DNA of 64,000 nt, taken from the NCBI RefSeq assembly GCF_054482595.1, contig NZ_CM137008.1, one strand, 5' to 3'. Position 1 is the stretch's first letter. Each line of letters opens with the position of its first letter. Positions 2,633 to 64,000 of this stretch are shown here, one piece after another. A program made the translations under genes and the position numbers. The notes beneath the pieces were generated by a model that had not been told where the DNA came from, did no database searches, and saw only the letters and a list, made by a program, of their open reading frames with translations.

Positions 2633-2720
2633 TGTGATATTCTGTATGCCGTTTTTACGGATATGACAGGGTGAGGGATAACCTCACATCCTGATTATTG
2701 ACTAAGTGCGCGTTGTTCAT

Positions 2721-2818: not shown

Positions 2819-2870
2819 TTTATGCGTTTAGGGTGAGGGATAACCTCGCCCTTTTTAATTCTGAGGTGCT

Positions 2871-3677: not shown

Positions 3678-3682
3678 ACAAT

Positions 3683-3719
3683 CAGGTCGGATGCGACGCG
3701 AACGTCTTATCCGACCTGG
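3683..3719. repeat. REP element between convergent tcdA and csdE
   Basis: aggtcggatgcgacgcgaacgtcttatccgacctgg imperfect palindrome. Confidence 0.65.
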
Positions 3720-3727
3720 TTCTGTGC

Positions 3728-4171
3728 TTAAACCTGCTTCGCCGCAGCGATAATCGCCTCGCTTAACGCATTCAACCCCTGGCTGCGTGAGGCGCTAAGC
3801 TGTGCACGCAATCCCAGCTCATCAAACAATGCCAGCGGCGACTGTGCCTGCAATTCGGCGGCGGTTTTCCCCTCAACGGCAGTCAACAACACCGCCAACA
3901 GGCCGCGCACAATGCGCCCTTCGCTATCGCCAAAGAAGTGCATTTTACCGTTTTCAGTCACGGTATATCCCAGCCAGACGCGGTTTTCGCATCCGGCAAT
4001 CTCTTTAGCCTGCGCTTTTAACTCGTCTGGCAAAGCCGGAAGCTGTTTCCCCAGCATGATCAACTGGCGATATTTATCTTCCCATTGCGACAACGGAGCG
4101 AAGGTATTGCGTAACGTTTCTGCGGTTACGGTTGTGCCGAACGGATGTCCGGCGAATTGCGGGTTTGTCAT
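3728..4171 (-). CDS. csdE: Sulfur acceptor protein CsdE (SufE-like)
   Basis: 147-aa ORF; its start overlaps the csdA stop by 1 nt. Confidence 0.9.
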
Positions 4172-46883: not shown

Positions 46884-47339
46884 GAGTTCCCCGCGCCAGC
46901 GGGGATAAACCGGCCTGGCGATTTCTCGTCAGGCCTTGCGGTGTGAGTTCCCCGCGCCAGCGGGGATAAACCGTCAGTAAAGCGGCGCCCACTGATATCG
47001 GATTAGAGTTCCCCGCGCCAGCGGGGATAAACCGAGGGGCAGGGAGTGACGCTGGAGCAGGCGATCGAGTTCCCCGCGCCAGCGGGGATAAACCGGGAAA
47101 TTAGGCAAATGTGAACACGGCGGCCCCGAGTTCCCCGCGCCAGCGGGGATAAACCGCCAGTATTTTGTCGTGGATTGCGGGATCACCAGAGTTCCCCGCG
47201 CCAGCGGGGATAAACCGTTGAGTTTGTTCGTAACAACGCGGGTCATCTGGAGTTCCCCGCGGCAGCGGGGATAAACCGGGTACAAAAGAGGCCCCATTCT
47301 GGCAGGGCTCAAGTTCCCCGCGCCAGTGGGGATAAACCA
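46884..47339 (+). CRISPR. Type I-E CRISPR array: 8 repeats of 29 nt, 7 spacers of 32 nt, no adjacent cas genes
   Basis: Repeat GAGTTCCCCGCGCCAGCGGGGATAAACCG at 46884, 46945, 47006, 47067, 47128, 47189, 47250 (one C-to-G variant) and degenerate terminal repeat aagttccccgcgccagtggggataaacca at 47311; exact 61-nt period. Confidence 0.95.
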
Positions 47340-47977: not shown

Positions 47978-49456
47978 TTACGCATTCGACCAGCTCTGGA
48001 TCGAATCCGCATTTCCCAATTCCCCATGCATCACTTCATACGATTTTTTCAGAATCACATCAGTATGTTTGGTTAGGTCTTTGAAAATGCCTTTATTCAT
48101 CGCGTCGTAGCGTTTGGCATTGCTCTCAATCGGTATAAAGATATCTTTCACGCGAACCATTTTATCGACAGCCGTTGCGTAATCCGGGTATAGCCCCAGA
48201 CCTACCGCTGTATTAATCGCTGCCCCCAGGCTTGCACAACCGTTAATGGCGTTACGTCGTGCCGGAAGGTTGAACACGTCGGCAAAAATCTGCATAAACA
48301 GATCGCTGTTCGAACCGCCGCCAGTAATGATTACATGCTTCGCAAAGTGATTCATTTCATTACACATATTGTCGTAATTGTTCTTCAGCGTCAGCGCCAC
48401 GCTTTCCAGTATCGAACGATATATCCATGCGTAATCCATGCTGGAATCAAAGCCGATCATAATCCCGCGTTTGTACGGTTCCCACGGATTGGTCAGCCAG
48501 TCCAGCACCGTCATCAGCCCATTACAGCCAGGTGGCACACTAGAGGCTTTCTTGTTGAGTAAATCTTCCGGTGAAAGATCCTGCGCCCTGGCATCCTGAA
48601 TTAACGACTCGCCTAACATGTCGCGCAGCCAGCTCACCGTCCACATGCCTTTGCGAATACCGTAACCTTCATACAGCAATGTTTGCGGAATAGAAGACAT
48701 AATCGGCCAGTACGCCACCGGATCTTTCGGCAAGGCTTTGCCGTTCATCATCAATGCGATGTAAGTGCCAAGAGAAATTACCGCAGTTTCATCATCCAGT
48801 AATCCGGCCCCCAGAGCTTCTACCGGTTTATCACTGGTGGTACAAACAACCGGCAGTCCTGCCGGGAAATGTGTCGCCAGTGCGGCTTGTGGTGTGATCT
48901 GTCCAAGGACGGTGCCAGGCATTTGCACATCAAACAGCATATGACGGGGGATATTAAACTTATCCATTACCGCAGCATCTTCACTCCATGCCCAGGTCTT
49001 ATAATCCACCGGCCACTGACCAAAATAGTTGGCGATATTGTCTTTAAACTCGCCGGTTAAGCGATGCGTCAGATAACCCGAAAAAGAGGTGACATAGGCC
49101 ACGTCAGGATTAGTGTGTTCGTAGGGACGCGTTACGCGTGCATCCTGCCAGCTAATCAATGGCGCAGCTGGCGTGCCATCGGCTTTCAATAACGCACGGC
49201 AGCAACGGATGGATCCCAGACCAATACCGACAATATCTTCTTTATTCCCGGCAAACTGACTCATCAAATCGTGACCGGCAAAACATAATGATGCCCATAA
49301 ATCGTCGTCAGGATGTTCTGCGGTATCGGCATCTGGCGTGTGCATCGGCTGCAATAAACCTTTGCCTTCGCAAACCACGTTACCTTCCAGATCGTACATC
49401 ACCACTTTTGTGCTCTGACTTCCGCCATCAATCCCTATGATGTATTTCTTCGACAT
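47978..49456 (-). CDS. ygcE: FGGY-family carbohydrate kinase
   Basis: 492-aa ORF MSKKYIIGIDGGSQSTKVVMYD; FGGY N- and C-terminal domains. Confidence 0.85.
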   Translation of the reverse strand: MSKKYIIGIDGGSQSTKVVMYDLEGNVVCEGKGLLQPMHTPDADTAEHPDDDLWASLCFAGHDLMSQFAGNKEDIVGIGLGSIRCCRALLKADGTPAAPLISWQDARVTRPYEHTNPDVAYVTSFSGYLTHRLTGEFKDNIANYFGQWPVDYKTWAWSEDAAVMDKFNIPRHMLFDVQMPGTVLGQITPQAALATHFPAGLPVVCTTSDKPVEALGAGLLDDETAVISLGTYIALMMNGKALPKDPVAYWPIMSSIPQTLLYEGYGIRKGMWTVSWLRDMLGESLIQDARAQDLSPEDLLNKKASSVPPGCNGLMTVLDWLTNPWEPYKRGIMIGFDSSMDYAWIYRSILESVALTLKNNYDNMCNEMNHFAKHVIITGGGSNSDLFMQIFADVFNLPARRNAINGCASLGAAINTAVGLGLYPDYATAVDKMVRVKDIFIPIESNAKRYDAMNKGIFKDLTKHTDVILKKSYEVMHGELGNADSIQSWSNA

Positions 49457-49482
49457 GATTTTTCTCCTGTAATTTTCCTGGC

Positions 49483-50760
49483 TTACTTGCTGCTAGCCAT
49501 TGCGGGGGCGCTATCAGCAGTACGAATTTTTTGGAACAGCAAAAAGGTAAAGACAATCACCATGGCAAGCGCCGCCATGCCCATCAGCCACATATTGCGG
49601 TAGGCTTCTGCTGCGGGCAGGGTGTCTTGCCAGTGGCCGATAATTGGGTAAACGAAGACATCCGGCAGGAATCCAATCACCGAGCAAATACCTACCGTGG
49701 TGCCCATAATGTAAGACGGTGTTCTCGCTTCGCCAGGGCAGGCCCAGTACAGCCCGCGTGAGGCGTAACAGGTGAATCCCAGCAGTAAAATCAGGCCAAT
49801 CCCCATCGCGACCGATTGCGGGTTAGAGTTCGTGACGAGCAGGGCAGTTAACGCCAGCAGGCCGAGTACGGAAAGGATTTGGATCACGCGGGTAGGGGAT
49901 TTCACTTTGCTGTAGGTGGTGATTATGCCGCCAAGTGGGCCGCACAGCGCGCGGAAGATTTTGTTGATCACAATCCCCATGTAGCTCGCCGCCACCAGCG
50001 ACATGCCGTACATTTCGGTCAGATAGTTGGTGGAGTAACTCAGAATGGCGTAGATGGTGAAGACACCAAAAATCACCATGCTGCAATACCAGGTGGTACT
50101 GATACGCAAAACGGCCAGGATATCGCTAAGCTGGAATGACTGTTTTTCTTCGTTATTGGCACTGCGCAGGTTGTTGTTATCGCTAACAAAAAACCAGCAC
50201 AGAAGCCCCAACAAGATGTAAACCACACTGTAGATGATAATGACCGTTTTCAGGCTGGCGCTGTCATCCGGTGCAAAGCGAGAAAAGACCCACATGGTAA
50301 ACACCGCCAGCGACATTACACCGACGCCGCGCAGCCCTTCCATCCAGCCCATAATTTTCCCTTGCTCGCTATGATCGCCAAGCAACGATGCGGCTTTAAT
50401 CGACACCGACCACAGCATTAAAATCGTCGTTATCGCAAAGGCGACCTGAATACAGAGCATTACCCACAGCGGTGGATACGTTGCCATTAACAGACCCAGT
50501 AATCCGGTAATGATCATCGCGGAAGTAATCATTTTGCGATGTGAGAATTTATCAGCAATAACGCCGCTGGGGGCATAAAGAATAATAGCTGCAATACCAA
50601 AGGTACTCATTATTAAACCTATCTCGGTATTGCTGAATCCCATAAATTTCGCCATGGGAATTTGATAAATATAACGTAAATAAGCCAGGTCGAAACTAAC
50701 GCCGCCGCTAAAACTAATTATCGCGAGGGTTATCCAACGGCGATATGAGTTGTGTTGCAT
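49483..50760 (-). CDS. yqcE: MFS transporter
   Basis: 425-aa polytopic ORF upstream of and co-oriented with ygcE. Confidence 0.85.
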   Translation of the reverse strand: MQHNSYRRWITLAIISFSGGVSFDLAYLRYIYQIPMAKFMGFSNTEIGLIMSTFGIAAIILYAPSGVIADKFSHRKMITSAMIITGLLGLLMATYPPLWVMLCIQVAFAITTILMLWSVSIKAASLLGDHSEQGKIMGWMEGLRGVGVMSLAVFTMWVFSRFAPDDSASLKTVIIIYSVVYILLGLLCWFFVSDNNNLRSANNEEKQSFQLSDILAVLRISTTWYCSMVIFGVFTIYAILSYSTNYLTEMYGMSLVAASYMGIVINKIFRALCGPLGGIITTYSKVKSPTRVIQILSVLGLLALTALLVTNSNPQSVAMGIGLILLLGFTCYASRGLYWACPGEARTPSYIMGTTVGICSVIGFLPDVFVYPIIGHWQDTLPAAEAYRNMWLMGMAALAMVIVFTFLLFQKIRTADSAPAMASSK

Positions 50761-50882
50761 ATCGTATTCCCATTTGTAATAGACAAAAAAAAGAGAAAAG
50801 TAAGCCGCCCTTTCAGGTGGATTACTTTTCTCAGGTCTCTAGTAATTGAAATAATAAATAACATGGAAAGCAGAGGTGTTGT

Positions 50883-50954
50883 GTGAGAGTAATCACGCTT
50901 CTGCTTTTTAAAACTATTTGATAATGCGAATATCACACTGTGATTACGATCACA
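50883..50954. promoter_or_regulatory. Two CRP-like boxes in the yqcE/ygcW divergent region
   Basis: tgtgaGAGTAAtcacg (50883..50898) and perfect TGTGAttacgaTCACA (50939..50954). Confidence 0.55.
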
Positions 50955-51008
50955 TTAGCAGTTATGCCCTTATGCTAAAAATTATCTCCAGTTACCAGAG
51001 ATAATGAG

Positions 51009-51054
51009 AAAGGTAACTTCCCTCTCGCGGGGGAAGTTACCTTTCTTTTTTTTT
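51009..51054 (+). terminator. Strong intrinsic-terminator-like hairpin in the ygcW leader (possible attenuator)
   Basis: aaaggtaacttccc-tctcgcgg-gggaagttaccttt (14-bp perfect stem) followed by cTTTTTTTTT; ends 25 nt before the ygcW start codon. Confidence 0.6.
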
Positions 51055-51078
51055 GCCTTACGGAAATTGGAGCTAACT

Positions 51079-51864
51079 ATGTCAATCGAATCTCTCAATG
51101 CGTTCTCAATGGATTTTTTCTCCCTGAAAGGTAAAACCGCAATTGTTACCGGCGGGAATAGCGGTTTAGGCCAGGCATTTGCCATGGCGTTGGCCAAAGC
51201 AGGCGCAAATGTCTTTATTCCTAGCTTCGTCAAAGATAACGGCGAAACAAAGGAAATGATTGAAAAACAGGGTGTTGAAGTTGATTTTATGCAGGTGGAT
51301 ATCACCGCAGAAGGCGCGCCGCAGAAGATTATCGCTGCTTGCTGTGAGCGTTTCGGAACAGTTGATATTCTGGTTAACAATGCCGGTATTTGTAAGCTGA
51401 ATAAGGTGCTGGACTTTGGTCGAGCCGACTGGGACCCGATGATTGATGTGAACCTGACCGCCGCATTCGAGTTAAGCTACGAAGCGGCAAAAATTATGAT
51501 CCCGCAGAAAAGCGGTAAAATTATTAATATCTGTTCATTGTTCTCTTACTTAGGTGGACAATGGTCACCTGCATATTCTGCCACTAAACATGCTCTTGCC
51601 GGATTCACCAAAGCTTATTGTGATGAACTAGGTCAATATAATATTCAGGTAAATGGTATCGCCCCTGGCTATTATGCAACAGATATTACGCTGGCGACAC
51701 GCAGTAATCCAGAAACCAATCAGCGCGTTCTTGATCATATTCCGGCAAACCGTTGGGGCGATACTCAGGATTTAATGGGCGCAGCCGTGTTTCTCGCAAG
51801 TCAGGCATCGAATTATGTCAACGGGCATTTATTAGTGGTCGATGGCGGTTATTTAGTGCGCTAA
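51079..51864 (+). CDS. ygcW: Short-chain dehydrogenase/reductase (KduD/FabG-like)
   Basis: ORF 51004..51864; start chosen at MSIESLNAFSM (261 aa) after RBS ggag; Rossmann motif TGGNSGLGQA; YxxxK catalytic motif (YSATK). Confidence 0.85.
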   Translation: MSIESLNAFSMDFFSLKGKTAIVTGGNSGLGQAFAMALAKAGANVFIPSFVKDNGETKEMIEKQGVEVDFMQVDITAEGAPQKIIAACCERFGTVDILVNNAGICKLNKVLDFGRADWDPMIDVNLTAAFELSYEAAKIMIPQKSGKIINICSLFSYLGGQWSPAYSATKHALAGFTKAYCDELGQYNIQVNGIAPGYYATDITLATRSNPETNQRVLDHIPANRWGDTQDLMGAAVFLASQASNYVNGHLLVVDGGYLVR

Positions 51865-51933
51865 CCCATAACGGTGGTTTCTGTTTTCTCTTATTAATGA
51901 TTATTCCATTTTTATTATCAGGAAGGAATTACT

Positions 51934-53388
51934 ATGTCTTTATCTCGCGCAGCGATTGTCGACCAGCTAAAGGAAATTGTTGGTGCAGATCGCGTAATTA
52001 CCGATGAAACAGTATTAAAGAAGAACAGTATTGACCGTTTTCGTAAATTTCCGGATATTCATGGCATTTATACTTTGCCGATTCCGGCAGCGGTCGTAAA
52101 ACTCGGTTCCACAGAACAAGTCTCCCGTGTGCTGAATTTTATGAATGCGCACAAAATTAACGGTGTGCCGCGTACCGGTGCTTCCGCCACCGAAGGTGGG
52201 CTGGAAACTGTTGTAGAAAACTCGGTGGTGCTCGACGGCTCCGCCATGAATCAAATCATTAATATTGATATTGAGAATATGCAGGCGACGGCGCAATGTG
52301 GCGTTCCCCTGGAAGTGCTGGAAAACGCGTTGCGTGAAAAAGGTTACACCACGGGGCATTCTCCGCAGTCAAAGCCGCTGGCGCAGATGGGCGGCCTGGT
52401 AGCAACCCGCAGTATCGGGCAGTTCTCCACACTCTACGGCGCAATCGAAGATATGGTCGTTGGTCTGGAAGCAGTATTGGCTGATGGCACCGTCACACGC
52501 ATTAAAAACGTGCCACGCCGCGCGGCTGGCCCGGACATTCGTCACATCATCATCGGCAACGAAGGTGCATTGTGCTATATCACTGAAGTAACAGTGAAAA
52601 TCTTTAAATTCACCCCGAAAAACAACCTCTTCTACGGCTATATCCTGGAAGACATGAAAACCGGCTTCAACATCCTGCGTGAAATCATGGTGGAAGGGTA
52701 TCGTCCGTCGATCGCTCGTTTGTATGACGCTGAAGATGGCACCCAACACTTCACCCATTTTGCCGACGGAAAATGTGTGCTGATCTTTATGGCTGAAGGT
52801 AACCCTCGCATTGCGAAGGCGACGGGCGAAGGGATTGCGGAAATCGTTGCCCGCTACCCGCAGTGCCAGCGCGTGGACAGCAAACTGATCGAAACCTGGT
52901 TTAACAACCTGAACTGGGGACCGGATAAAGTGGCTGCCGAACGTGTGCAAATCCTCAAAACCGGCAACATGGGCTTTACCACTGAAGTGTCCGGCTGCTG
53001 GAGCTGCATCCACGAAATCTACGAAAGCGTTATTAACCGTATTCGTATCGAGTTCCCGCACGCCGACGACATCACTATGCTGGGTGGTCACTCCTCTCAT
53101 AGCTATCAGAACGGCACCAACATGTACTTCGTCTACGACTACAACGTTGTCAACTGTAAGCCGGAAGAGGAAATCGACAAGTACCACAATCCGCTCAACA
53201 AAATCATCTGCGAAGAAACCATTCGCCTCGGCGGTTCGATGGTGCACCACCACGGCATTGGTAAACATCGCGTTCACTGGAGCAAGCTGGAACACGGCAG
53301 CGCGTGGGCGTTGCTGGAAGGGCTGAAAAAGCAATTCGATCCTAACGGCATTATGAATACGGGTACTATCTATCCGATTGAAAAATAA
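51934..53388 (+). CDS. ygcU: FAD-linked oxidoreductase (FAD-binding PCMH type)
   Basis: 484-aa ORF MSLSRAAIVDQLKEIVGADRVITDE. Confidence 0.85.
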   Translation: MSLSRAAIVDQLKEIVGADRVITDETVLKKNSIDRFRKFPDIHGIYTLPIPAAVVKLGSTEQVSRVLNFMNAHKINGVPRTGASATEGGLETVVENSVVLDGSAMNQIINIDIENMQATAQCGVPLEVLENALREKGYTTGHSPQSKPLAQMGGLVATRSIGQFSTLYGAIEDMVVGLEAVLADGTVTRIKNVPRRAAGPDIRHIIIGNEGALCYITEVTVKIFKFTPKNNLFYGYILEDMKTGFNILREIMVEGYRPSIARLYDAEDGTQHFTHFADGKCVLIFMAEGNPRIAKATGEGIAEIVARYPQCQRVDSKLIETWFNNLNWGPDKVAAERVQILKTGNMGFTTEVSGCWSCIHEIYESVINRIRIEFPHADDITMLGGHSSHSYQNGTNMYFVYDYNVVNCKPEEEIDKYHNPLNKIICEETIRLGGSMVHHHGIGKHRVHWSKLEHGSAWALLEGLKKQFDPNGIMNTGTIYPIEK

Positions 53389-53481
53389 TGTGTCAGGCAG
53401 CGTTCCGCGATGATGGGGCGTTGCCTTTTCGGCTTCTCAGGCGAGAAGCCGTTCTTATTACCGGACAATGAAGGGGTAAAG

Positions 53482-54819
53482 ATGAACACTTCACCGGTGC
53501 GAATGGATGATTTACCGCTTAACCGTTTTCACTGTCGAATTGCTGCGCTCACTTTCGGCGCACACCTGACCGACGGTTATGTTCTCGGCGTCATTGGTTA
53601 CGCCATTATTCAACTTACGCCCGCCATGCAACTGACGCCGTTTATGGCGGGAATGATCGGCGGCTCGGCGCTCCTTGGTTTGTTTCTTGGCAGCCTGGTT
53701 CTTGGGTGGATCTCCGACCATATTGGTCGGCAAAAAATCTTCACCTTCAGCTTTTTGCTGATTACGCTCGCTTCGTTCCTGCAATTTTTTGCCACCACGC
53801 CAGAGCATCTTATTGGACTGCGCATTTTGATCGGCATTGGTCTGGGAGGCGATTACTCAGTAGGTCACACCTTGCTGGCTGAATTTTCCCCGCGCCGCCA
53901 TCGCGGTGTTTTGCTGGGCGCATTCAGCGTGGTGTGGACCGTAGGCTATGTGTTAGCAAGTATTGCCGGACATCACTTTATTAGCGAAAGCCCGGAGGCC
54001 TGGCGCTGGCTGCTGGCATCGGCAGCTATGCCCGCGTTGTTGATTACGTTATTACGCTGGGGAACGCCAGAATCGCCACGCTGGCTACTGCGCCAGGGGC
54101 GTTTTGCAGAAGCTCACGCTATCGTGCATCGCTATTTTGGTCCCCATGTTTTACTGGGCGATGAAGTGGCAACGGCGACCCATAAACACATCAAAACCTT
54201 GTTCTCTTCGCGCTACTGGCGGCGCACGGCGTTTAACAGCGTCTTCTTTGTCTGCCTCGTAATCCCATGGTTTGTGATTTATACCTGGCTGCCAACTATC
54301 GCCCAGACTATTGGTCTAGAAGATGCGCTGACTGCCAGCCTGATGCTTAATGCGTTGTTAATTGTGGGCGCGCTGCTGGGATTAGTTCTGACGCACCTGC
54401 TGGCACATCGCAAATTTTTGCTGGGAAGTTTTTTGCTGCTGGCGGCAACGCTGGTAGTAGTGGCCTGTTTGCCTTCCGGCAGTTCATTAACGCTGCTGCT
54501 TTTTGTTCTCTTCAGCACCACCATTTCGGCAGTCAGTAATCTGGTGGGCATTTTGCCTGCGGAAAGTTTTCCTACTGACATTCGCTCGCTGGGCGTCGGT
54601 TTTGCCACCGCCATGAGCCGGTTGGGCGCGGCGGTAAGTACTGGCCTGCTGCCGTGGGTGCTGGCGCAGTGGGGAATGCAAGTTACCTTATTGATCCTGG
54701 CGGCAGTGTTGTTGGTTGGTTTTGTTGTGACCTGGCTATGGGCACCAGAAACCAAAGCACTCCCGCTGGTGGCGGCGGGAAATGTAGGAGGTGCGAATGA
54801 ACATTCTGTTAGCGTTTAA
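53482..54819 (+). CDS. ygcS: MFS sugar transporter
   Basis: ORF 53410..54819; start chosen at MNTSPVRMDD (445 aa); polytopic. Confidence 0.8.
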   Translation: MNTSPVRMDDLPLNRFHCRIAALTFGAHLTDGYVLGVIGYAIIQLTPAMQLTPFMAGMIGGSALLGLFLGSLVLGWISDHIGRQKIFTFSFLLITLASFLQFFATTPEHLIGLRILIGIGLGGDYSVGHTLLAEFSPRRHRGVLLGAFSVVWTVGYVLASIAGHHFISESPEAWRWLLASAAMPALLITLLRWGTPESPRWLLRQGRFAEAHAIVHRYFGPHVLLGDEVATATHKHIKTLFSSRYWRRTAFNSVFFVCLVIPWFVIYTWLPTIAQTIGLEDALTASLMLNALLIVGALLGLVLTHLLAHRKFLLGSFLLLAATLVVVACLPSGSSLTLLLFVLFSTTISAVSNLVGILPAESFPTDIRSLGVGFATAMSRLGAAVSTGLLPWVLAQWGMQVTLLILAAVLLVGFVVTWLWAPETKALPLVAAGNVGGANEHSVSV

Positions 54820-55576
54820 AGCCGAACCGGATGCCGGAATGCTGGCGGAAAAAGAGTGGCAGGCGGCGGCTCAGGGTAATAGCGGACCGGATGTTTCGCT
54901 ACTGCGAAGTTTACTCGGTGCTGATGAACAGGCTGCCGCCGCGCTGCTGTTGGCGCAGAGAAAAAACGGTACGCCGATGTCTTTAACCGCGTTGAGCATG
55001 GGGGATGAACGGGCGTTACACTGGCTGCGCTATCTCATGGCTCTTGGGTTTGAGGAAGCTGTATTGCTGGAGACGGCGGCAGATCTGCGCTTTGCGTCGG
55101 AATTTGTCGCTCGCCATATTGCCGAATGGCAGCGTCAGAATCCGCTGGATCTGATAATTACCGGCTGCCAAAGCAGCGAAGGGCAGAATGGGCAAACGCC
55201 ATTTTTGCTGGCGGAAACGCTGGGCTGGCCCTGCTTCACCCAGGTGGAGCGTTTCACTCTCGACGCGCTGTTTATCACCCTCGAACAGCGTACTGAACAT
55301 GGGCTGCGCTGTTGCCGGGTTCGCTTGCCTGCGGTGATTGCCGTGCGCCAGTGCGGTGAAGTGGCCTTGCCAGTACCGGGAATGCGCCAGCGAATGGCTG
55401 CGGGGAAAGCGGAAATTATCCGTAAAACTGTTGCTGCCGAATTGCCAGCGATGCAGTGTCTGCAACTGGCAAGAGCAGAGCAACGACGCGGAGCGACGCT
55501 GATTGATGGGCAAACGGTAGCAGAAAAAGCGCAAAAGCTATGGCAGGACTATTTACGCCAAAGGATGCAGCCATGA
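54797..55576 (+). CDS. ygcR: Electron-transfer-flavoprotein beta-subunit-like protein
   Basis: ORF 54791..55576; start chosen at MNILLAFKAEPDAG (259 aa); overlaps ygcS 3' end. Confidence 0.8.
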   Translation: MNILLAFKAEPDAGMLAEKEWQAAAQGNSGPDVSLLRSLLGADEQAAAALLLAQRKNGTPMSLTALSMGDERALHWLRYLMALGFEEAVLLETAADLRFASEFVARHIAEWQRQNPLDLIITGCQSSEGQNGQTPFLLAETLGWPCFTQVERFTLDALFITLEQRTEHGLRCCRVRLPAVIAVRQCGEVALPVPGMRQRMAAGKAEIIRKTVAAELPAMQCLQLARAEQRRGATLIDGQTVAEKAQKLWQDYLRQRMQP

Positions 55577-56433
55577 ATATCGCAATTGTGACAATAAATC
55601 AGGAGAATGCCGCAATAGCAAGCTGGCTGGCGGCGCAGGATTTCAGCGGTTGTACCCTGGCGCACTGGCAGATTGAACCTCAGCCCGTAGTGGCGGAACA
55701 GGTGCTGGATGCGCTGGTGGAACAGTGGCAGCGAACGCCTGCGAACGTTGTTCTCTTTCCGCCGGGAACGTTTGGCGATGAACTGTCGACCCGGCTGGCC
55801 TGGCGTTTACATGGTGCAAGCATCTGCCAGGTGACTTCGTTAGAGATTCCAACCGTAAGCGTGCGCAAATCCCACTGGGGAAATGCGCTAACGGCGACGC
55901 TGCAAACAGAAAAACGCCCGCTATGCCTTTCCCTGGCGCGTCAGGCGGGAGCAGCGAAAAACGCCACGTTGCCCTCTGGAATGCAACAACTGAACATTGT
56001 CCCGGGTGCGCTTCCGGACTGGCTGGTTAGCATAGAGAACCTGAAAAATGTTACCCGCGACCCATTAGCTGAGGCCAGACGGGTGTTGGTGGTGGGGCAG
56101 GGCGGAGAGGCAGATAACCAGGAAATCGCTATGCTGGCAGAAAAGCTGGGAGCCGAAGTGGGCTACAGTCGGGCGCGAGTGATGAACGGTGGCGTTGATG
56201 CTGAAAAAGTGATTGGTATTTCCGGACATCTGCTGGCACCTGAGGTGTGTATTGTTGTTGGCGCTTCTGGCGCAGCAGCGTTAATGGCGGGCGTACGCAA
56301 TAGCAAGTTTGTGGTGGCGATTAATCATGACGCCAGCGCAGCGGTATTTTCACAGGCAGATGTTGGCGTGGTTGATGACTGGAAAGTGGTGCTGGAGGCA
56401 CTGGTGACAAACATTGACGCAGATTGCCAATAA
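55573..56433 (+). CDS. ygcQ: Electron-transfer-flavoprotein alpha-subunit-like protein
   Basis: ORF 55540..56433; start chosen at MNIAIVTINQ (286 aa); C-terminal FAD-binding region. Confidence 0.8.
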   Translation: MNIAIVTINQENAAIASWLAAQDFSGCTLAHWQIEPQPVVAEQVLDALVEQWQRTPANVVLFPPGTFGDELSTRLAWRLHGASICQVTSLEIPTVSVRKSHWGNALTATLQTEKRPLCLSLARQAGAAKNATLPSGMQQLNIVPGALPDWLVSIENLKNVTRDPLAEARRVLVVGQGGEADNQEIAMLAEKLGAEVGYSRARVMNGGVDAEKVIGISGHLLAPEVCIVVGASGAAALMAGVRNSKFVVAINHDASAAVFSQADVGVVDDWKVVLEALVTNIDADCQ

Positions 56434-56437
56434 CGTG

Positions 56438-56548
56438 TTGCCGGATGATCCTGCCTACGGTTCTGGACTGGGGACCTGTAGGCCTGATAAGACGCGTTAA
56501 GCGTCGCATCAGGCGCTGAATGTCGGATGTGGCGTGCGGCCTACAAAT
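56438..56548. repeat. REP/BIME cluster between convergent ygcQ and ygcP
   Basis: gccggatgatcctgcctacgg, tgtaggcctgataagacgcgttaagcgtcgcatcaggcgc, gtcggatgtggcgtgcggcctaca. Confidence 0.7.
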
Positions 56549-56580
56549 CAAACCAAATTCAATTGGTTACGATTATCCCG

Positions 56581-57156
56581 TCAAAGCAATTTTTTCGCTA
56601 ACGTCCAGACTCCGGTATTCGTGGTGGAAAGCGCCACGACACCCGCGTTAATCGCATTACGCGCATCTTCTTCATCGCATACCAGCCCGCCAGCAATCAG
56701 CGGTTGGCGGATTTTTTCCGTCACCCAGCCCAGCACTTTGGGCATGCAGCCTGGCAGGATCTCAATACAATCCGGATTCGATTGCGCAACTTGCTTATCA
56801 ATGTTGTGAAACGAAATCGAATCAACAATAAACAGGCGATGAATACAGAAAAAACCTTCCGCTCTTGCCGCTTTCAACATTGAGGCTTTGGTACTGATAA
56901 TGCCGTCCGCCTCGGTCACCAGTTTCAAAAACTGAATCACGACTTCTTTATTTGACGCGCCTTCCAGCAAATCAACATGAATAAAAGCATATTTCCCGGC
57001 GTTCTTAATCTTTTTAACGATATTACTGATGGTGCAGATATTGCCGTACAACACGGAAATAAACTGGCATTCAGAGTCGATTGCCAGTTGTAGGCTGGCA
57101 TTATCTTTAACGGCAGCAATCACCGGATTCTGGCGGAGCAGGTGTAAGAGGGGCAT
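56581..57156 (-). CDS. ygcP: GlpP-like (glycerol-3-phosphate-responsive antiterminator family) protein
   Basis: 191-aa ORF MPLLHLLRQNPVIAAVKDN; last gene of the ygcN-ygcO-ygcP minus-strand unit. Confidence 0.8.
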   Translation of the reverse strand: MPLLHLLRQNPVIAAVKDNASLQLAIDSECQFISVLYGNICTISNIVKKIKNAGKYAFIHVDLLEGASNKEVVIQFLKLVTEADGIISTKASMLKAARAEGFFCIHRLFIVDSISFHNIDKQVAQSNPDCIEILPGCMPKVLGWVTEKIRQPLIAGGLVCDEEDARNAINAGVVALSTTNTGVWTLAKKLL

Positions 57157-57172
57157 AAATTATCCTTATTAT

Positions 57173-57433
57173 TTATCCAAAACGGTAGGTGATGCCGAAT
57201 CCGGAAGGCGGATAGCGCCACTGTTGTAGTGTTGATTCGTCGCACAGCAAACGGCAGGTGCCACACTCCAGGCAACTGCGATAGTCAATACGTAAGTCAC
57301 CTTCCGGTGTGAGCGAAAAAAGACCTGCCGGACAGGCGTTAATCAACCGTTCTGCCGTCTGGCGCTCAACGGAGTCAGCCGGAACAATATGTGGCGCATC
57401 AGCAGCGCGCCAGAGATTACGGGCTACAGACAT
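57173..57433 (-). CDS. ygcO: Ferredoxin-like protein (FixX-like)
   Basis: ORF 57173..57469; start chosen at MSVARNLW (86 aa); Cys cluster CLECGTCRLLC. Confidence 0.75.
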   Translation of the reverse strand: MSVARNLWRAADAPHIVPADSVERQTAERLINACPAGLFSLTPEGDLRIDYRSCLECGTCRLLCDESTLQQWRYPPSGFGITYRFG

Positions 57434-58695
57434 CGCAGACTCCTGATAACGTCGCCCGCCAGATGCCACAGGCCGTGACGACGTAAATGACGCCAGAATA
57501 ACTGGCGCAGCGGTGGAACAGGTTTATCACCCTGATCCCATAAATCGCGGGAAATATCCTGCATTAACGCAGGCCACGCCCAATACCAGCCAGGGCGTTG
57601 CAAAAGCGCCGGAACATGCTGATAACGCTGTAGAACATCCCACAGCAGGCTGCGCTCGACGTTGTGATGATAAAGCGGAAACAGATTTTGCGGCTCGCAG
57701 TGCTGGCAGGCGCTTATCAGCGTTTGTGCCGCCGCCTGTGCGCCAGTCAGCGCCATATCCATGCCGCGCACGGAGATTCCGGTATTGACGCAACTGCGTA
57801 ACGCATCGCCCACCAGCAGCCAGCCGTTACCGGCGTATTGCACTGGCATACTGTGCAAGCCACCTTCTGGCACCAGATGCGCACCATACTCCAGTGATTC
57901 CGTGTTTTTGATAAGCGGGCGCACTGCCGGATACGTTTTAAAGCGAGCCAGCAGCTCGCTTGCCGGAACACGACTTTGCGTAAGGGAAGAGAGCGGGCAA
58001 ACAATCCCTAACGAGAGCGTTTGTTGATTAGTATAAAGAAATGCGCCGCCGGGAAAGTCATCACAGATTCCGCCGCTGAACAGCAACGCTGCGCCTTCGT
58101 TATTCTCCAGATGAAAACGTTCTTCAATAGCGGATGTTTCCAGCGACAGCACTTCTTTGATCCCCAACGCCATCGCTTCGCCAGCAGGACGAGTCACTAA
58201 TCCGTGACGTTCAGCCAGGACGCTGTTGGCACCTTCTGCCAGCACCACATAACGGGCGCGGAGAATATCGTCACCACAAATGACACCACACACTCTGCCG
58301 TTTTCTTCATACAGTGCATCCACCGTCGCTCCGGGGATACATTCGACACCTTCTTTTTCGGCTTCGGCAACCAGCCACGGATCGAACCGTGCACGTAATA
58401 CACTCCAGGATTCACCGCCGGGCTGTAAGCTGGAAAACGTCGTTGCGCCATCCGGCGTTAACAGGGAAAGGCTTTCGTGAGTGATGCGTCGTTCAAGAGG
58501 CGCGGTCAGATGAAACTGAGGGAGGAGTTCCGCGAGTGCATGGGTATATAACCGCCCGCCGGAAAGATTTTTGCTGCCGGGGATTTCAGCGCGTTCCAGT
58601 AACAAAACGGATAAACCCGCTCGCGCGCAGCGTAACGCGCAAGCGGTGCCTGCAATACCGGCACCAATAATAATAATGTCGCAGTCGTCTTCCAT
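57424..58695 (-). CDS. ygcN: FAD-dependent oxidoreductase (FixC / ETF-QO-like)
   Basis: ORF 57424..58725; start chosen at MEDDCDIIIIGAGIAG (423 aa); dinucleotide-binding motif. Confidence 0.8.
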   Translation of the reverse strand: MEDDCDIIIIGAGIAGTACALRCARAGLSVLLLERAEIPGSKNLSGGRLYTHALAELLPQFHLTAPLERRITHESLSLLTPDGATTFSSLQPGGESWSVLRARFDPWLVAEAEKEGVECIPGATVDALYEENGRVCGVICGDDILRARYVVLAEGANSVLAERHGLVTRPAGEAMALGIKEVLSLETSAIEERFHLENNEGAALLFSGGICDDFPGGAFLYTNQQTLSLGIVCPLSSLTQSRVPASELLARFKTYPAVRPLIKNTESLEYGAHLVPEGGLHSMPVQYAGNGWLLVGDALRSCVNTGISVRGMDMALTGAQAAAQTLISACQHCEPQNLFPLYHHNVERSLLWDVLQRYQHVPALLQRPGWYWAWPALMQDISRDLWDQGDKPVPPLRQLFWRHLRRHGLWHLAGDVIRSLRCL

Positions 58696-58772
58696 GTCAT
58701 GCCCCAGATATCCTGAACACAACACCCTAACATAGCGTTACTTAAGGGAAATTGACCGCCGACACACTCTTA

Positions 58773-59138
58773 TCATTCGCCGCGATAGATACAACCAGCG
58801 GTGCAGGTTTCTTTTACCATCACCGCACTTAACAGCGGCACAACGGGTTTAACCTGATCCCAAATCCATTTTGCTAAAACTTCGCTGGTCGGGTTTTCCA
58901 GACCTGGAATATCATTGAGATAATGGTGATCGAGGCGCTCATAAGTTGGCTTAAACGCCGCTTTCAGTTCAGCGAAATCGATAATCCAGCCCGTATGCGG
59001 ATCGACTTCCCCGGTAATTTCCAGTCGCACCATAAAGGAATGCCCGTGCAGGCGACCACATTTATGCCCTTCCGGGACGTGTGGTAAGCGGTGAGCGGCT
59101 TCGAAGGTGAAATCTTTAAATAACGTGGTGGACATCAT
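58773..59138 (-). CDS. queD: 6-carboxy-5,6,7,8-tetrahydropterin synthase
   Basis: ORF 58773..59222; start chosen at [19 protein letters not shown] (about 121 aa); His-motif HGHSF. Confidence 0.85.
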
Positions 59139-59453
59139 AATTTCTCTACAGGACGATAAAACCGCCGTAGAGTACCGGAAAGGCTGTTTTTTCGCATTAT
59201 CTAAAACGACTTTGTTGCGCAAAATCGCTGATTTATCTTAATGATTGGCTAAATTCATTTGTTTTTCATTAGGTTGGTTAATCTATTTTGTTGTTAAAGA
59301 CTATTGCTAAAACAGGTTAGTCGATTTGGTTATTAGTTATCGCTATCCCGTCTTTAATCCACACCGTTCACCCCGTTAACCTTACCTTCTCTTCTGTTTT
59401 ATGGGCGCTGACAGGGCGCAGAAACAGCTTTGCTTACTGGAACATAACGACGC

Positions 59454-61253
59454 ATGACGACACAGGTCCCACCTTCCGCGTTGCTTCCGTTGAACCCGGA
59501 GCAACTGGCACGCCTTCAGGCGGCCACGACCGATTTAACTCCCACCCAGCTTGCCTGGGTTTCTGGCTATTTCTGGGGCGTGCTCAATCAGCAGCCTGCT
59601 GCGCTTGCAGCGACGCCAGCGCCAGCCGCAGAAATGCCGGGTATAACTATTATCTCTGCTTCGCAAACCGGCAATGCGCGCCGGGTTGCTGAAGCATTAC
59701 GCGATGATTTATTAGCAGAAAAACTGAACGTTAAGCTGGTGAACGCGGGCGACTATAAATTCAAACAAATCGCCAGCGAAAAACTGCTCATCGTAGTGAC
59801 GTCAACGCAAGGGGAAGGGGAACCGCCGGAAGAAGCCGTCGCGCTGCATAAGTTCCTGTTCTCCAAAAAAGCGCCGAAGCTGGAAAATACCGCTTTTGCC
59901 GTGTTTAGCCTCGGCGATAGTTCTTATGAATTTTTCTGCCAGTCCGGGAAAGATTTCGACAGCAAGCTGGCGGAACTGGGCGGTGAACGCCTGCTCGACC
60001 GTGTCGACGCCGACGTTGAATACCAGGCTGCTGCCAGCGAGTGGCGCGCCCGCGTGGTTGATGCGCTTAAATCGCGTGCGCCTGTCGCGGCACCTTCGCA
60101 ATCCGTCGCTACTGGCGCGGTAAATGAAATCCACACCAGCCCGTACAGCAAAGACGCGCCGCTGGTGGCTAGCCTCTCTGTTAACCAGAAAATTACCGGG
60201 CGTAACTCTGAAAAAGACGTTCGCCATATCGAAATTGACTTAGGTGACTCGGGCCTGCGCTATCAGCCGGGCGACGCGCTGGGCGTGTGGTATCAGAACG
60301 ATCCGGCACTGGTGAAAGAACTTGTCGAACTGCTGTGGCTGAAAGGCGATGAAACTGTCACCGTTGACGGCAAAACGCTGACCCTGCGCGAAGCGCTACA
60401 GTGGCACTTCGAACTGACGGTTAACACCGCCAATATCGTTGAGAACTATGCCACGCTTACCCGCAGTGAAACGCTGCTGCCGCTGGTGGGCGATAAAGCG
60501 AAGTTGCAGCATTACGCCGCGACCACGCCGATTGTCGATATGGTGCGTTTCTCTCCGGCACAGCTTGATGCTGAAGCGCTGATTAACCTGCTGCGCCCGC
60601 TGACGCCGCGCCTCTATTCCATCGCCTCATCGCAGGCTGAAGTGGAAAGTGAAGTGCACGTCACCGTTGGTGTCGTTCGTTATGACATTGAAGGCCGCGC
60701 CCGTGCGGGTGGTGCCTCCAGCTTCCTCGCGGACCGCGTGGAAGAAGAGGGTGAAGTCCGCGTCTTTATCGAACATAACGATAACTTCCGCCTGCCCGCT
60801 AACCCGGAAACCCCGGTGATTATGATTGGCCCAGGCACCGGTATCGCGCCGTTCCGCGCCTTTATGCAGCAACGTGCTGCCGATGAAGCACCGGGTAAAA
60901 ACTGGCTGTTCTTTGGCAACCCGCATTTTACGGAAGATTTCCTCTACCAGGTGGAGTGGCAGCGCTACGTCAAAGAGGGTGTGCTGACGCGGATCGATCT
61001 CGCCTGGTCGCGCGATCAAAAAGAAAAAGTTTACGTACAAGACAAACTGCGCGAACAGGGCGCGGAGCTGTGGCGCTGGATCAATGACGGTGCCCACATT
61101 TATGTCTGCGGCGACGCTAATCGCATGGCGAAAGACGTTGAGCAGGCACTTCTGGAAGTGATTGCCGAATTTGGTGGCATGGACACCGAAGCGGCGGATG
61201 AATTTTTAAGTGAGCTGCGCGTAGAGCGCCGTTATCAGCGAGATGTCTACTAA
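59454..61253 (+). CDS. cysJ: Sulfite reductase [NADPH] flavoprotein alpha subunit
   Basis: 599-aa ORF with flavodoxin and FNR-like domains; stop overlaps cysI start. Confidence 0.93.
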
Positions 61254-62965
61254 TGAGCGAAAAACATCCAGGGCCTTTAGTGGTTGAAGGAAAACTGACA
61301 GACGCCGAGCGCATGAAGCTTGAAAGCAACTACCTGCGCGGCACCATTGCGGAAGATTTAAACGACGGCCTGACCGGCGGCTTTAAGGGCGATAACTTCC
61401 TGCTGATCCGCTTCCACGGCATGTATCAGCAGGATGACCGCGACATCCGCGCCGAACGTGCTGAACAGAAGCTGGAGCCGCGCCACGCGATGCTGCTTCG
61501 CTGTCGTCTGCCGGGGGGAGTGATTACCACTAAACAGTGGCAGGCGATCGACAAATTTGCCGGTGAAAACACCATCTATGGCAGCATTCGCCTGACCAAC
61601 CGCCAGACGTTTCAGTTCCACGGCATTCTGAAAAAGAACGTCAAACCGGTGCACCAGATGCTGCACTCGGTCGGTCTTGATGCGCTGGCGACCGCTAACG
61701 ACATGAACCGTAACGTACTCTGCACCTCGAACCCTTACGAGTCGCAGCTGCACGCAGAAGCGTACGAGTGGGCGAAGAAAATCTCTGAACATCTGCTGCC
61801 TCGTACCCGCGCGTATGCGGAGATCTGGCTCGATCAGGAAAAAGTCGCCACCACTGATGAAGAACCGATCCTCGGCCAGACCTACCTGCCGCGTAAATTC
61901 AAAACCACGGTAGTGATCCCGCCACAGAACGATATCGATCTGCACGCCAACGACATGAACTTCGTGGCGATCGCCGAAAACGGCAAGCTGGTGGGCTTTA
62001 ACCTGTTGGTGGGCGGTGGGCTTTCTATCGAACACGGCAACAAGAAAACCTACGCCCGCACGGCGAGTGAGTTTGGCTATCTGCCGCTAGAGCATACGCT
62101 AGCGGTGGCGGAAGCCGTCGTGACAACTCAGCGTGACTGGGGTAACCGAACCGATCGTAAAAATGCCAAAACCAAATACACGCTGGAGCGAGTGGGAGTT
62201 GAGACGTTTAAAGCGGAAGTGGAGCGTCGCGCGGGGATCAAATTTGAACCGATCCGTCCGTATGAGTTCACCGGACGTGGAGATCGTATTGGCTGGGTTA
62301 AGGGCATTGATGATAACTGGCACCTGACGCTGTTTATCGAAAATGGTCGCATCCTTGATTATCCGGGGCGTCCGCTGAAAACCGGCCTGCTGGAGATCGC
62401 GAAGATCCACAAAGGTGATTTCCGCATTACGGCGAACCAGAATCTGATCATCGCCGGTGTGCCGGAAAGCGAGAAAGCGAAGATCGAGAAGATCGCCAAA
62501 GAGAGCGGGTTAATGAATGCCGTCACGCCGCAGCGTGAAAACTCAATGGCCTGCGTCTCGTTCCCGACTTGCCCGCTGGCGATGGCGGAAGCGGAGCGTT
62601 TCCTGCCGTCTTTTATCGACAACATCGATAATTTAATGGCGAAACATGGTGTCAGCGATGAGCATATCGTGATGCGTGTAACAGGCTGCCCGAACGGTTG
62701 TGGTCGCGCGATGCTGGCGGAAGTGGGCCTGGTGGGTAAAGCGCCGGGTCGCTACAACCTGCATCTTGGCGGCAACCGTATTGGGACACGTATCCCACGG
62801 ATGTATAAAGAAAACATCACCAAGCCGGAAATCCTGGCGTCGCTTGATGAACTGATAGGGCGCTGGGCGAAAGAGCGCGAAGCGGGTGAAGGCTTCGGCG
62901 ACTTTACGGTGCGTGCGGGCATCATTCGCCCGGTGCTCGATCCGGCGCGCGATTTGTGGGATTAA
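61253..62965 (+). CDS. cysI: Sulfite reductase [NADPH] hemoprotein beta subunit
   Basis: 570-aa ORF; sirohaem/Fe4S4 Cys motifs ([18 protein letters not shown]). Confidence 0.93.
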
Positions 62966-62980
62966 CCATCAGCCCGGTCT

Positions 62981-63018
62981 TGTAGGCCTGATAAGACGCG
63001 TGAGCGTCGCATCAGGCA
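62981..63018. repeat. REP element between cysI and cysH
   Basis: tgtaggcctgataagacgcgtgagcgtcgcatcaggca, nearly identical to the REP unit at about 56478. Confidence 0.7.
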
Positions 63019-63038
63019 AGGCAAACAGTGAGGAATCT

Positions 63039-63773
63039 ATGTCCAAACTCGATCTAAACGCCCTGAACGAACTGCCGAAGGTAGATCGCATTCTGGCGCT
63101 GGCGGAAACTAACGCCCAACTGGAAAAACTGGACGCTGAAGGCCGCGTAGCCTGGGCGCTGGATAATCTGCCCGGTGAATATGTGCTTTCTTCCAGCTTC
63201 GGCATTCAGGCGGCGGTGAGCCTGCATCTGGTGAATCAGATTCGCCCGGATATTCCAGTGATCCTCACCGATACCGGTTACTTGTTCCCGGAAACCTACC
63301 GCTTTATCGATGAGTTAACGGACAAACTCAAGCTCAACCTGAAAGTGTACCGTGCTACCGAAAGCGCAGCCTGGCAGGAAGCACGCTACGGAAAACTGTG
63401 GGAACAGGGCGTTGAAGGCATTGAAAAGTACAATGACATCAACAAAGTCGAACCGATGAACCGGGCGCTGAAAGAACTTAACGCGCAAACGTGGTTTGCT
63501 GGCCTGCGCCGTGAACAATCCGGCAGCCGCGCCAATTTACCGGTGCTGGCAATTCAGCGTGGCGTATTTAAAGTGCTGCCGATTATCGACTGGGATAACC
63601 GAACGATATATCAGTATCTGCAAAAGCATGGCCTGAAATATCACCCATTATGGGACGAAGGATATTTATCGGTGGGCGATACCCATACAACCCGTAAATG
63701 GGAACCCGGCATGGCGGAAGAAGAAACGCGTTTCTTTGGCTTAAAAAGGGAATGTGGGTTACACGAAGGGTAA
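63039..63773 (+). CDS. cysH: Phosphoadenosine phosphosulfate (PAPS) reductase
   Basis: ORF 62886..63773; start chosen at [15 protein letters not shown] (244 aa) after RBS gaggaa; C-terminal ECGLH motif. Confidence 0.92.
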
Positions 63774-63782: not shown

Positions 63783-63822
63783 GATAAATTAAACGCCTCT
63801 GTCAGAAATGATGGGGGCGTTT
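63783..63822 (+). terminator. Probable intrinsic terminator after cysH
   Basis: aaacgcctc...gggggcgtttttatttt hairpin plus T-run. Confidence 0.5.
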
Positions 63823-64000
63823 TTATTTTGCGAGCAGCATTCCTGATTTTAAACGTGAACGCCGCTGGAAGAATTATCAGGTATAGAATGGCGTCGGGTG
63901 CTTGAGGCTGTCTGGCGTTAAGCATTCGCGAGGTTCCAGATGGACAAAAGCCCCAGGCGATATTTCTATCAACCTGAGGCTCGCGTTCGAACGTAGCAAT

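Follow-up and report, generated by a model that had tools for sequence, protein, structure and literature searches.

Two look-alike REP units lie in the window, by which we mean the whole 64,000-nt stretch of DNA that was analysed. The first, copy 1, occupies the gap between ygcQ (55573-56433, + strand) and the convergent ygcP (56581-57156, - strand); the second, copy 2, occupies the gap between cysI (61253-62965, + strand) and cysH (63039-63773, + strand), which is internal to the cysJIH operon. An earlier note on this DNA had placed REP units at about 56478 and at 62981 and had named these flanking genes; it was right on both counts. The features of the two gaps are the following.

56478-56514, + strand: copy 1, a z1-class REP (palindromic unit), with GTAG at 56478-56481, an imperfect palindrome at 56482-56514 and the loop GTTAA
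56521-56544, - strand: decayed y-type REP, inverted, TGTCGGATGTGGCGTG^CGGCCTAC, recognised by alignment with other REP units
62963-62965, + strand: cysI stop codon TAA; the GTAG of the REP follows after 16 nt, its core stem after 20 nt
62982-63017, + strand: copy 2, a z1-class REP, with GTAG at 62982-62985, a palindrome at 62986-63017 and the loop GTGA
63029-63041, + strand: Shine-Dalgarno sequence (GAGGA) and ATG of cysH, 21 nt downstream of the copy 2 REP and outside its hairpin

Copy 1 reads TGTAGGCCTGATAAGACGCGTTAAGCGTCGCATCAGGC (56477-56514) and copy 2 reads TGTAGGCCTGATAAGACGCGTGAGCGTCGCATCAGGC (62981-63017). A repeat search found exact runs of 21 nt at a spacing of 6504 nt and of 15 nt at a spacing of 6503 nt, so that the two differ by one substitution and a 1-nt indel in the loop. 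They are direct repeats, each with GTAG first on the + strand.

REP classes were assigned by blastn-short against three consensus sequences, z1, z2 and y (consensus and class definitions from PMC3333891 and PMC11208160). The alignment of copy 1 with the z1 consensus is 37 columns long and contains a single mismatch and a single gap, and copy 2 was identical to this consensus at 35 of 36 positions; the y and z2 consensus sequences gave just 14-nt partial matches to both copies. The conserved GTAG on the 5' side of the palindrome's foot, a defining feature of REPs (PMC3333891), is present in each, and both units are extragenic, copy 1 lying between the stop codons of ygcQ and ygcP, and copy 2 between the stop codon of cysI and the start codon of cysH. 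The K-12 REP between ygcQ and ygcP has the same structure as copy 1, with the loop TCAA instead of TTAA, and the K-12 cysI/cysH REP has one extra A relative to copy 2. An Rfam search with the two copies returned no family at the gathering threshold. The decayed y unit, 6 nt (GCTGAA) from copy 1, falls about 11 nt short of the y consensus; it is also kept in K-12 and in strain AR_0006, and together with copy 1 it makes up a degenerate, atypical BIME.

Further REP or BIME copies, given in the earlier note at 2721, 3683 and 30791, are also present.

2721-2817, unstranded: BIME in the mltA/tcdA gap, made of a y REP (2721-2754), a 34-nt linker and a z2 REP (2789-2817)
3688-3713, - strand: atypical REP-like palindrome GGTCGGATGCGACGCGAACGTCTTATCCGACC in the tcdA/csdE gap, with CCAG replacing GTAG
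30792-30825, + strand: single y REP in the gudD/barA gap, found by consensus match

Of the sites, ygcQ/ygcP, tcdA/csdE and gudD/barA answer to the earlier note's description as convergent or inter-operon gaps; cysI/cysH, which is inside its operon, and mltA/tcdA, where the two genes are co-directional, do not.

The resemblance of copies 1 and 2 goes far beyond what chance would give in random sequence, and is still expected, because both belong to the REP family. The REP is a dispersed, high-copy element, with about 600 copies in every E. coli genome: at E <= 0.01 we found at least 40 similar places per genome in 5,388 E. coli records, and the published count of REPs is 584 for K-12 (PMC3333891). 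In XH990, the strain from which the window comes, a word of at least 28 nt of copy 1 recurs exactly at 5 places, that is, at four besides copy 1 itself. The longest exact run common to copies 1 and 2 is 21 nt, and each of these four other places thus resembles copy 1 more closely than copy 2 does. The two copies are ordinary, independently placed z1 REPs, alike through the homogeneity of the family and with neither locus copied from the other, and their near-identity carries no special meaning.

Direct repeats 6.5 kb apart could nevertheless function as a recombination pair, giving rise to deletion or tandem duplication of ygcP-ygcO-ygcN-queD-cysJ-cysI, and the earlier note had called such copies potential substrates of recombination. 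Apart from the geometry of the pair (direct orientation, with 21 nt and 15 nt of exact identity), this idea can draw on the REP-REP recombination documented for F'128 amplification and for lambda bio junctions, as cited in PMC1525189, and on the varying number of cysI/cysH REPs among Escherichia lineages, a pattern compatible with recombination between REPs that lie about 100 nt from one another. However, among 5,426 complete E. coli genomes we found neither the deletion junction, searched for with a chimeric ygcQ-REP-cysH query, nor the duplication junction, searched for with the reciprocal cysI-REP-ygcP query (0/5,426 for each). For RecA-dependent exchange to be efficient in E. coli, a minimal length of about 23-27 bp is generally cited, and the longest perfect run available here, 21 nt, is at or below it. 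A deletion between the copies would also entail the loss of sulfite reductase (cysJ, cysI) and of queD. The single large deletion nearby (window 48435-58629), by which the ygcQ/ygcP REP is absent along with about 10 kb in roughly 300 E. coli genomes, ends within ygcE and ygcN and is bounded by a 6-bp microhomology with no REP; a REP-mediated origin of this ygc deletion was thus rejected. We conclude that copies 1 and 2 are not recombination partners, and consider the contrary extremely improbable. There is no need to follow the pair further as a hotspot of rearrangement.

What does happen at these loci, in natural strains, is insertion. Three sites in the two units are concerned.

56495-56501, unstranded: hairpin loop of copy 1, into which IS1397 has inserted in other strains; the target duplication in AR_0006 is TCAA
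56478-56488, - strand: exact IS621 bridge-RNA target motif ATCAGGCCTAC in copy 1, found by motif search
62982-62992, - strand: exact IS621 target motif ATCAGGCCTAC in copy 2, found by motif search and occupied in strain 7.1994/NIST0056

The junction of IS1397 within the loop of the ygcQ/ygcP REP was found in 285 of the 5,426 genomes, and in AR_0006 the interrupted unit reads ...GACGCGTCAA|IS1397|TCAAGCGTC... The insertion conforms to what is known of this IS3-family element, whose target is the central loop of the palindromic unit, with a duplication of 3-4 bp. Since the ygcQ/ygcP REP is split by IS1397 in these 285 genomes and absent from the roughly 300 that carry the deletion, it is dispensable. 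IS621 is a bridge-RNA recombinase element. Its natural 11-nt target, with a CT core, is ATCAGGCCTAC (IS110 family; PMC11208160). One genome (NZ_CP116241.1) carries IS621 at the CT core of the cysI/cysH REP, on the GTAG side (ATCAGGC|CT|AC), and the core dinucleotide AG, which is CT on the opposite strand, is found at both IS621 junctions in copy 2. REP-targeting insertion sequences thus land specifically at both REP loci, IS1397 in the loop and IS621 at the GTAG/CT core. The presence of an exact natural IS621 target in both copies, one of them occupied in nature, is relevant to the mapping of natural and off-target sites of bridge recombinases.

As RNA, both copies are predicted to fold into stable hairpins, of -22.0 kcal/mol (z = -4.9) for copy 1 and -21.9 kcal/mol (z = -5.0) for copy 2. 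The form is the same in each, 7 bp, an internal loop and 5 bp, in keeping with the 30-40 nt imperfect palindrome of a REP. At copy 2 the stem is predicted to be extended by 5 bp, 62977-62981 pairing with 63018-63022, which would place its start 11 nt past the cysI stop. The letters downstream of copies 1 and 2, AAGGCAAACAG and GCTGAATGTCGG respectively, hold no U-tract, and the hairpins are therefore not intrinsic terminators; no terminator-like site was found at either REP gap, and one lies after cysH, at 63791-63822. Published roles of REPs comprise mRNA stabilisation, attenuation, binding of gyrase, IHF and Pol I, and service as IS targets (PMC3333891, PMC1525189). By analogy with the family, each copy, co-transcribed with its neighbouring genes, may act as a barrier to 3'-5' exonucleases, and possibly as a partial attenuator of transcription. 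The cysI/cysH REP would then shield the cysJI portion of the message, which lies upstream of it, more than cysH, and the ygcQ/ygcP REP would shield the 3' ends of ygcQ or ygcP messages. It is likely, on this analogy, that each hairpin affords a modest protection of mRNA 3' ends.

Alternatively, the elements could work mainly at the level of DNA, as sites for gyrase, IHF or Pol I or as topological insulators. Such activities have been described for BIMEs (PMC3333891), and at ygcQ/ygcP two transcription units converge, a setting in which positive supercoils build up. Gyrase cleavage and IHF binding are, however, properties of full BIMEs, the former of BIME-2 repeats and the latter of the L linker of BIME-1 (PMC3333891), whereas the cysI/cysH gap holds a single REP, and in the ygcQ/ygcP gap a linker of 6 nt, lacking the L motif, joins a z1 unit to a truncated y unit. 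We regard this alternative as quite improbable, and retain 3'-end protection as the putative effect.

For the cysI/cysH gap, the comparison can be carried further. The single-REP form was found in 5,419 of the 5,426 E. coli genomes. Two or three REPs occupy the gap in other lineages of Escherichia, the three-REP form occurring in a divergent 'E. coli' and in E. albertii; among the matches listed for RefSeq complete E. coli genomes there was no three-REP form, all of them spanning 151 nt, as in the single-REP form. Across 80 species of Enterobacteriaceae, the gap between cysI and cysH exceeds 30 nt in 72. It contains REP/BIME types of the species' own, tagged by GTAGG/CCTAC, in 46 of the 80, and many of the remaining long-gap species have there a second, unrelated family of GC-rich palindromic repeats. 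In this 80-species comparison, the unit adjacent to cysH, where a REP is present, is always GTAG-first on the sense strand. The gap is empty in the other 8 species (15 nt, without a hairpin; CTACGAGAGGTAATT in Enterobacter). Because these eight species manage with a hairpin-free gap, the cysJIH operon is functional without a REP, and any effect of the REP is modulatory. Our literature search on a REP within cysJIH specifically found no report.

This distribution raises the question of whether selection maintains the cysI/cysH hairpin as a regulatory element, as opposed to a merely tolerated selfish repeat. It would set the CysJI:CysH ratio by protecting mRNA 3' ends, by attenuation, or by stalling ribosomes at the nearby cysI stop codon, with tmRNA tagging as the sequel. 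The near-universality of the single-REP gap in E. coli speaks for selection, as do the long gap of most species, filled by tagged REPs or BIMEs in 46 and by unrelated palindromic repeats in many others, and the constant sense orientation of the unit beside cysH. Liang, Rudd and Deutscher reportedly found in 2015 that REPs near stop codons have an effective range of about 15 nt or less, and the start of the predicted extended stem, 11 nt past the cysI stop, falls inside it. Against selection stand the structureless 15-nt gap of eight species, the free turnover of REP type and number between lineages, and the one natural strain in which IS621 has inserted between cysI and cysH. The recurrent occupancy could also reflect the sole permissive non-coding site in the transcribed region, combined with an insertion preference of the REP machinery. 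On balance a selected role in E. coli is possible, and we hold it to be doubtful. One might speculate, beyond E. coli, that a cysI-cysH hairpin has been repeatedly selected in Enterobacteriaceae, the position being filled independently by lineage-specific REPs or BIMEs or by unrelated GC-rich palindromes, as a convergently maintained tuner of the ratio of sulfite reductase to PAPS reductase, acting by mRNA 3'-end protection or by stalling close to the stop codon. This wider proposal is unlikely. Whatever its outcome, the cysI-cysH gap occurs in nature in a clean series of states (empty; with one, two or three REPs; with another repeat family) on which the effect of an intercistronic REP on an operon can be studied.

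Taken as a whole, we are highly confident in a reading of copies 1 and 2 as members of the z1 family that serve as IS landing sites, have a proposed effect on mRNA 3' ends and do not form a recombination pair. REPs, their classes, their targeting by IS1397 and IS621, and the polymorphism of BIMEs among strains are already known, from textbooks or from publications. The closest known system is the E. coli z1 REP class itself (nomenclature of Bachellier, Gilson and Hofnung; Ton-Hoang et al. 2012, PMC3333891), with which both copies share length, the 5' GTAG, a mismatched palindrome, a near-perfect consensus, an extragenic position and a high copy number; there is no substantive difference, the loops of copies 1 and 2 being 1-2 nt off the consensus and K-12. 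BIME-1 combines z1 and y REPs with a long L linker that holds an IHF site. At ygcQ/ygcP, too, a z1 REP is accompanied by an inverted y-type unit, but the linker is 6 nt long and without the L motif, and the y unit, about 11 nt short, can form no hairpin; the cysI/cysH gap has one REP only.

A REPtron consists of a single tnpA_REP gene with flanking BIMEs, and the sole REPtron of E. coli adjoins fhiA, in another part of the chromosome (PMC3333891). Copies 1 and 2, with their GTAG and stem mismatch, look to be of the kind that TnpA_REP (RAYT) binds and cleaves in vitro, as single-stranded DNA. The window contains no annotated tnpA_REP (Y1 transposase) gene, and of the 60 features annotated on the identical stretch of XH990 none is a transposase; the locus is thus not a REPtron, a REPtron in the window is ruled out, and the term REPtron substrates, used in the earlier note, was loose wording.

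The REP between malE and malF, an mRNA stabiliser (Newbury/Higgins 1987, Khemici & Carpousis 2004, both as cited in PMC3333891), is like that of cysI/cysH a hairpin free of a U-tract between two cistrons of one operon; the latter REP lies downstream of genes for complex partners (CysJ/CysI). At malE-malF, however, there are two REPs and a measured effect, whereas at cysI/cysH there is one REP, with an effect proposed by analogy. The IS621 and IS1397 insertions, finally, lie exactly where the published specificities predict and do not differ from those already described; they are further natural examples of both.

Strain XH990 (NZ_CP019359.1) is identical to the window (100%) across the 7.8 kb tested, and the window represents E. 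coli chromosome. XH990 positions were converted to window positions by subtracting 1,027,792, which gives the following genes.

Genes around the two REP units (XH990 annotation)
55573-56433, + strand, ygcQ
56581-57156, - strand, ygcP
57173-57433, - strand, ygcO
57424-58695, - strand, ygcN
58773-59135, - strand, queD
59454-61253, + strand, cysJ
61253-62965, + strand, cysI
63039-63773, + strand, cysH

Judged by sequence identity, this ygc-cysJIH haplotype is uncommon, since just 18 of 5,431 records reach at least 99% over 55800-63600 (7.8 kb), most E. coli lying at 96-97.7%. A CRISPR array is annotated at 46884-47339 (queE/ygcE interval) and cas3 (type I-E) begins just beyond the window end, past 64131; both REP copies fall between these two CRISPR-associated loci. 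In the cysH/cas3 interval, an Rfam match to the sok antitoxin (CssrC) at 63896-64000 is interrupted by the window end; a Hok/Gef protein is annotated at this place in other strains, with no such CDS annotated in XH990. Directly after the ygcP stop, an AT-rich hairpin (AACCAATTGAATTTGGTT then TGATTTGT, 56550-56567, - strand), below the GC criterion of our terminator scan, could terminate ygcP transcription weakly.

The earlier note had placed two near-identical REP units 6.5 kb apart, and both positions are correct: copy 1 at 56478-56514, in the convergent ygcQ/ygcP gap, and copy 2 at 62982-63017, in the cysI/cysH gap within the cysJIH operon. They share exact runs of 21 nt (spacing 6504) and 15 nt (spacing 6503), differ solely in the loop (GTTAA versus GTGA) and, both being GTAG-first on the + strand, are direct repeats. 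Classes were assigned by blastn-short against the E. coli y, z1 and z2 REP consensus sequences. The alignment of copy 1 to the z1 consensus has 37 columns, of which 1 is a mismatch and 1 a gap; copy 2 matches it at 35 of 36 positions. No other z1 units were found in the 64 kb. The classes are defined in PMC3333891; the published wording of the consensus sequences is in the methods of PMC11208160. The further REP/BIME copies noticed earlier are equally real; all units other than the two z1 copies are listed here.

Other REP units in the window
2721-2754, y REP, in the mltA/tcdA BIME
2789-2817, z2 REP, paired with the preceding y REP in the mltA/tcdA BIME
3688-3713, atypical unit, tcdA/csdE gap
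30792-30825, single y unit, gudD/barA gap
56521-56544, decayed inverted y unit, 6 nt downstream of copy 1, about 11 nt lost

With this decayed y unit, also kept in the K-12 and AR_0006 strains, beside copy 1, the ygcQ/ygcP site is a degenerate, atypical BIME, not a BIME-1. The REP density of the window is ordinary: 7 units at 5 sites (decayed y included) versus about 8 expected from the 584 REPs reported for K-12 (PMC3333891). An Rfam match to ES036 (CssrF sRNA) at 2754-2796 covers the mltA/tcdA BIME linker, beginning at the final base of the y REP and extending into the first bases of the z2 REP; the "sRNA" of this family may be nothing more than a BIME linker. In K-12, the ygcQ/ygcP REP has loop TCAA versus TTAA in the window, and the cysI/cysH REP (8680-8721 of the extracted K-12 locus versus window 62979-63019) is longer by one A (GATAAGAACGCG), leaving an additional base unpaired in the hairpin.

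A sensitive search with copy 2 turned up 40 or more similar places per genome, across 5,388 records. Copy 1 was searched stringently, so that a match had to include 28 identical consecutive nt, and 5 places in XH990 qualified; at least 4 other XH990 loci are therefore closer to copy 1 than is copy 2, whose longest run in common with it is 21 nt. The resemblance of the two copies is a family resemblance and nothing special. Plasmids also carry such places (7 in the stringent search, 299 in the sensitive one), among them an exact 37-nt z1 REP copy at 123553-123589 of the 155-kb NZ_CP074792.1.

The pair had also been proposed as a potential recombination substrate, and this part of the proposal is not supported for the pair. 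Two junctions were built and sought in 5,426 complete E. coli genomes, the one that a REP-to-REP deletion would leave (ygcQ end, REP, cysH start) and its reciprocal, which a duplication would leave (cysI end, REP, ygcP side); neither occurs in any of them. Their absence is expected: perfect identity between the copies extends over no more than 21 nt, and sulfite reductase and QueD are encoded in the interval. Another deletion is common: window 48435-58629 (10.2 kb), with one end within ygcE and the other 66 nt into ygcN, is missing from about 300 E. coli genomes (e.g. P393-F10), and copy 1 goes with it. Its ends share only 6 bp of microhomology, with no REP there, and we rejected it as a REP event.

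Both copies have been entered by insertion sequences. In AR_0006 (1134-2716 of the extracted locus), IS1397 (IS3 family) lies in the copy 1 loop (window 56495-56501), with junctions ...GACGCGTCAA / IS1397 / TCAAGCGTC... and a 4-bp duplication of TCAA; this junction occurs in 285 of the 5,426 genomes. In strain 7.1994/NIST0056 (2700-4010 of the extracted locus), IS621, an IS110-family element with a bridge-RNA recombinase, parts cysH from cysJI, its transposase being annotated as frameshifted. The junctions are ...CTTGTAG/ATACTGT... and ...ATAATACAAG/GCCTGAT..., and the insertion point in copy 2 (window 62982-62992) is the CT core of ATCAGGCCTAC (ATCAGGC-CT-AC, read on the other strand), the natural IS621 target (PMC11208160). 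In a motif search, exact occurrences of this 11-mer in the window numbered 3, one in each z1 copy and the third in the z2 unit at 2789. REP targeting by IS1397 and IS621 is established (PMC1525189; PMC3333891), and these cases add natural examples of a known behaviour, not a new one.

Of 5,426 E. coli genomes, 5,419 have the single-REP form of the cysI/cysH gap. Within Escherichia the content of the gap differs: one z1 unit is present in the window, K-12 and E69; SCPM-O-B-8794, a divergent "E. coli", carries z1-y-z1, E. albertii z2-like, y and z1, and two other genomes z2-like and y only. The single-REP form shares its left flank with the first REP of the three-REP form and its right flank with the last, a pattern consistent with recombination of direct REPs about 100 nt apart, or with the reverse via amplification. 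The three-REP form is absent among the matches listed from RefSeq complete E. coli, each spanning the 151 nt of the single-REP form. Between-strain variation in BIME number is a published feature (PMC3333891).

One CysH scan of species-representative genomes gave 80 Enterobacteriaceae loci. GTAGG/CCTAC-tagged REP/BIME units of their own lineage type occupy the gap in 46 species, and in 8 species (Enterobacter cloacae, E. wuhouensis, and Lelliottia, Leclercia, Huaxiibacter and others) the gap measures 15 nt and contains nothing but the ribosome-binding site. Many remaining gaps contain a GC-rich palindromic repeat of another kind, CCCTCTCCC...GGGAGAGGG...GGGTGAGGG, found where a REP would otherwise be in Kluyvera, Pseudocitrobacter, Phytobacter and others, sometimes in 2 copies (loci L008, L014, L021, L022, L033, L034, L080, L085, L087). 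The gap of L008, a locus labelled "Escherichia sp. E1V33", is almost the same as the Pseudocitrobacter faecalis one, and L011, which carries the label "Pseudocitrobacter vendiensis", combines an Escherichia-type BIME with cysH DNA 95% identical to the window; mislabelling or exchange is possible for both. This recurrent, lineage-specific filling by palindromic repeats could reflect a selected intercistronic hairpin or a plain permissive landing site, and is the only, mildly interesting, residue of the analysis.

Each copy is predicted to fold into a hairpin of 7 bp plus 5 bp (about -22 kcal/mol, z about -5). No U-run follows the hairpin at either copy, and the terminator scan found no terminator-like site in either gap; one lies after cysH (63791-63822). 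Copy 2 starts 16 nt past the cysI stop and, since it ends 21 nt ahead of the cysH ATG, leaves the cysH Shine-Dalgarno free. Liang, Rudd and Deutscher (2015) reportedly found that a REP near a stop codon can reduce expression of the gene before it by way of ribosome stalling and tmRNA; a predicted 5-bp stem extension would put the stem base of copy 2 at 11 nt past the cysI stop, a borderline spacing for such an effect. By analogy with the roles that PMC3333891 gives for the family, the hairpin in the cysJIH transcript would block 3'-5' exonucleases and perhaps act as a weak attenuator, which would favour cysJI over cysH, and that in the ygc gap would protect the 3' ends of the convergent transcripts. 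Any such role is modulatory and dispensable, because 8 species do without the hairpin and natural strains tolerate IS insertions at both sites.

Compared with known systems, the copies are neither part of a BIME-1 nor intrinsic terminators. They do not form a REPtron (a tnpA_REP gene with flanking BIMEs), a term raised in the earlier note: no transposase is annotated in the window, and the single tnpA_REP of E. coli adjoins fhiA, elsewhere on the chromosome (PMC3333891). Both show all the testable defining features of a z1 REP, and the pair is real, rightly described at the outset and already known.
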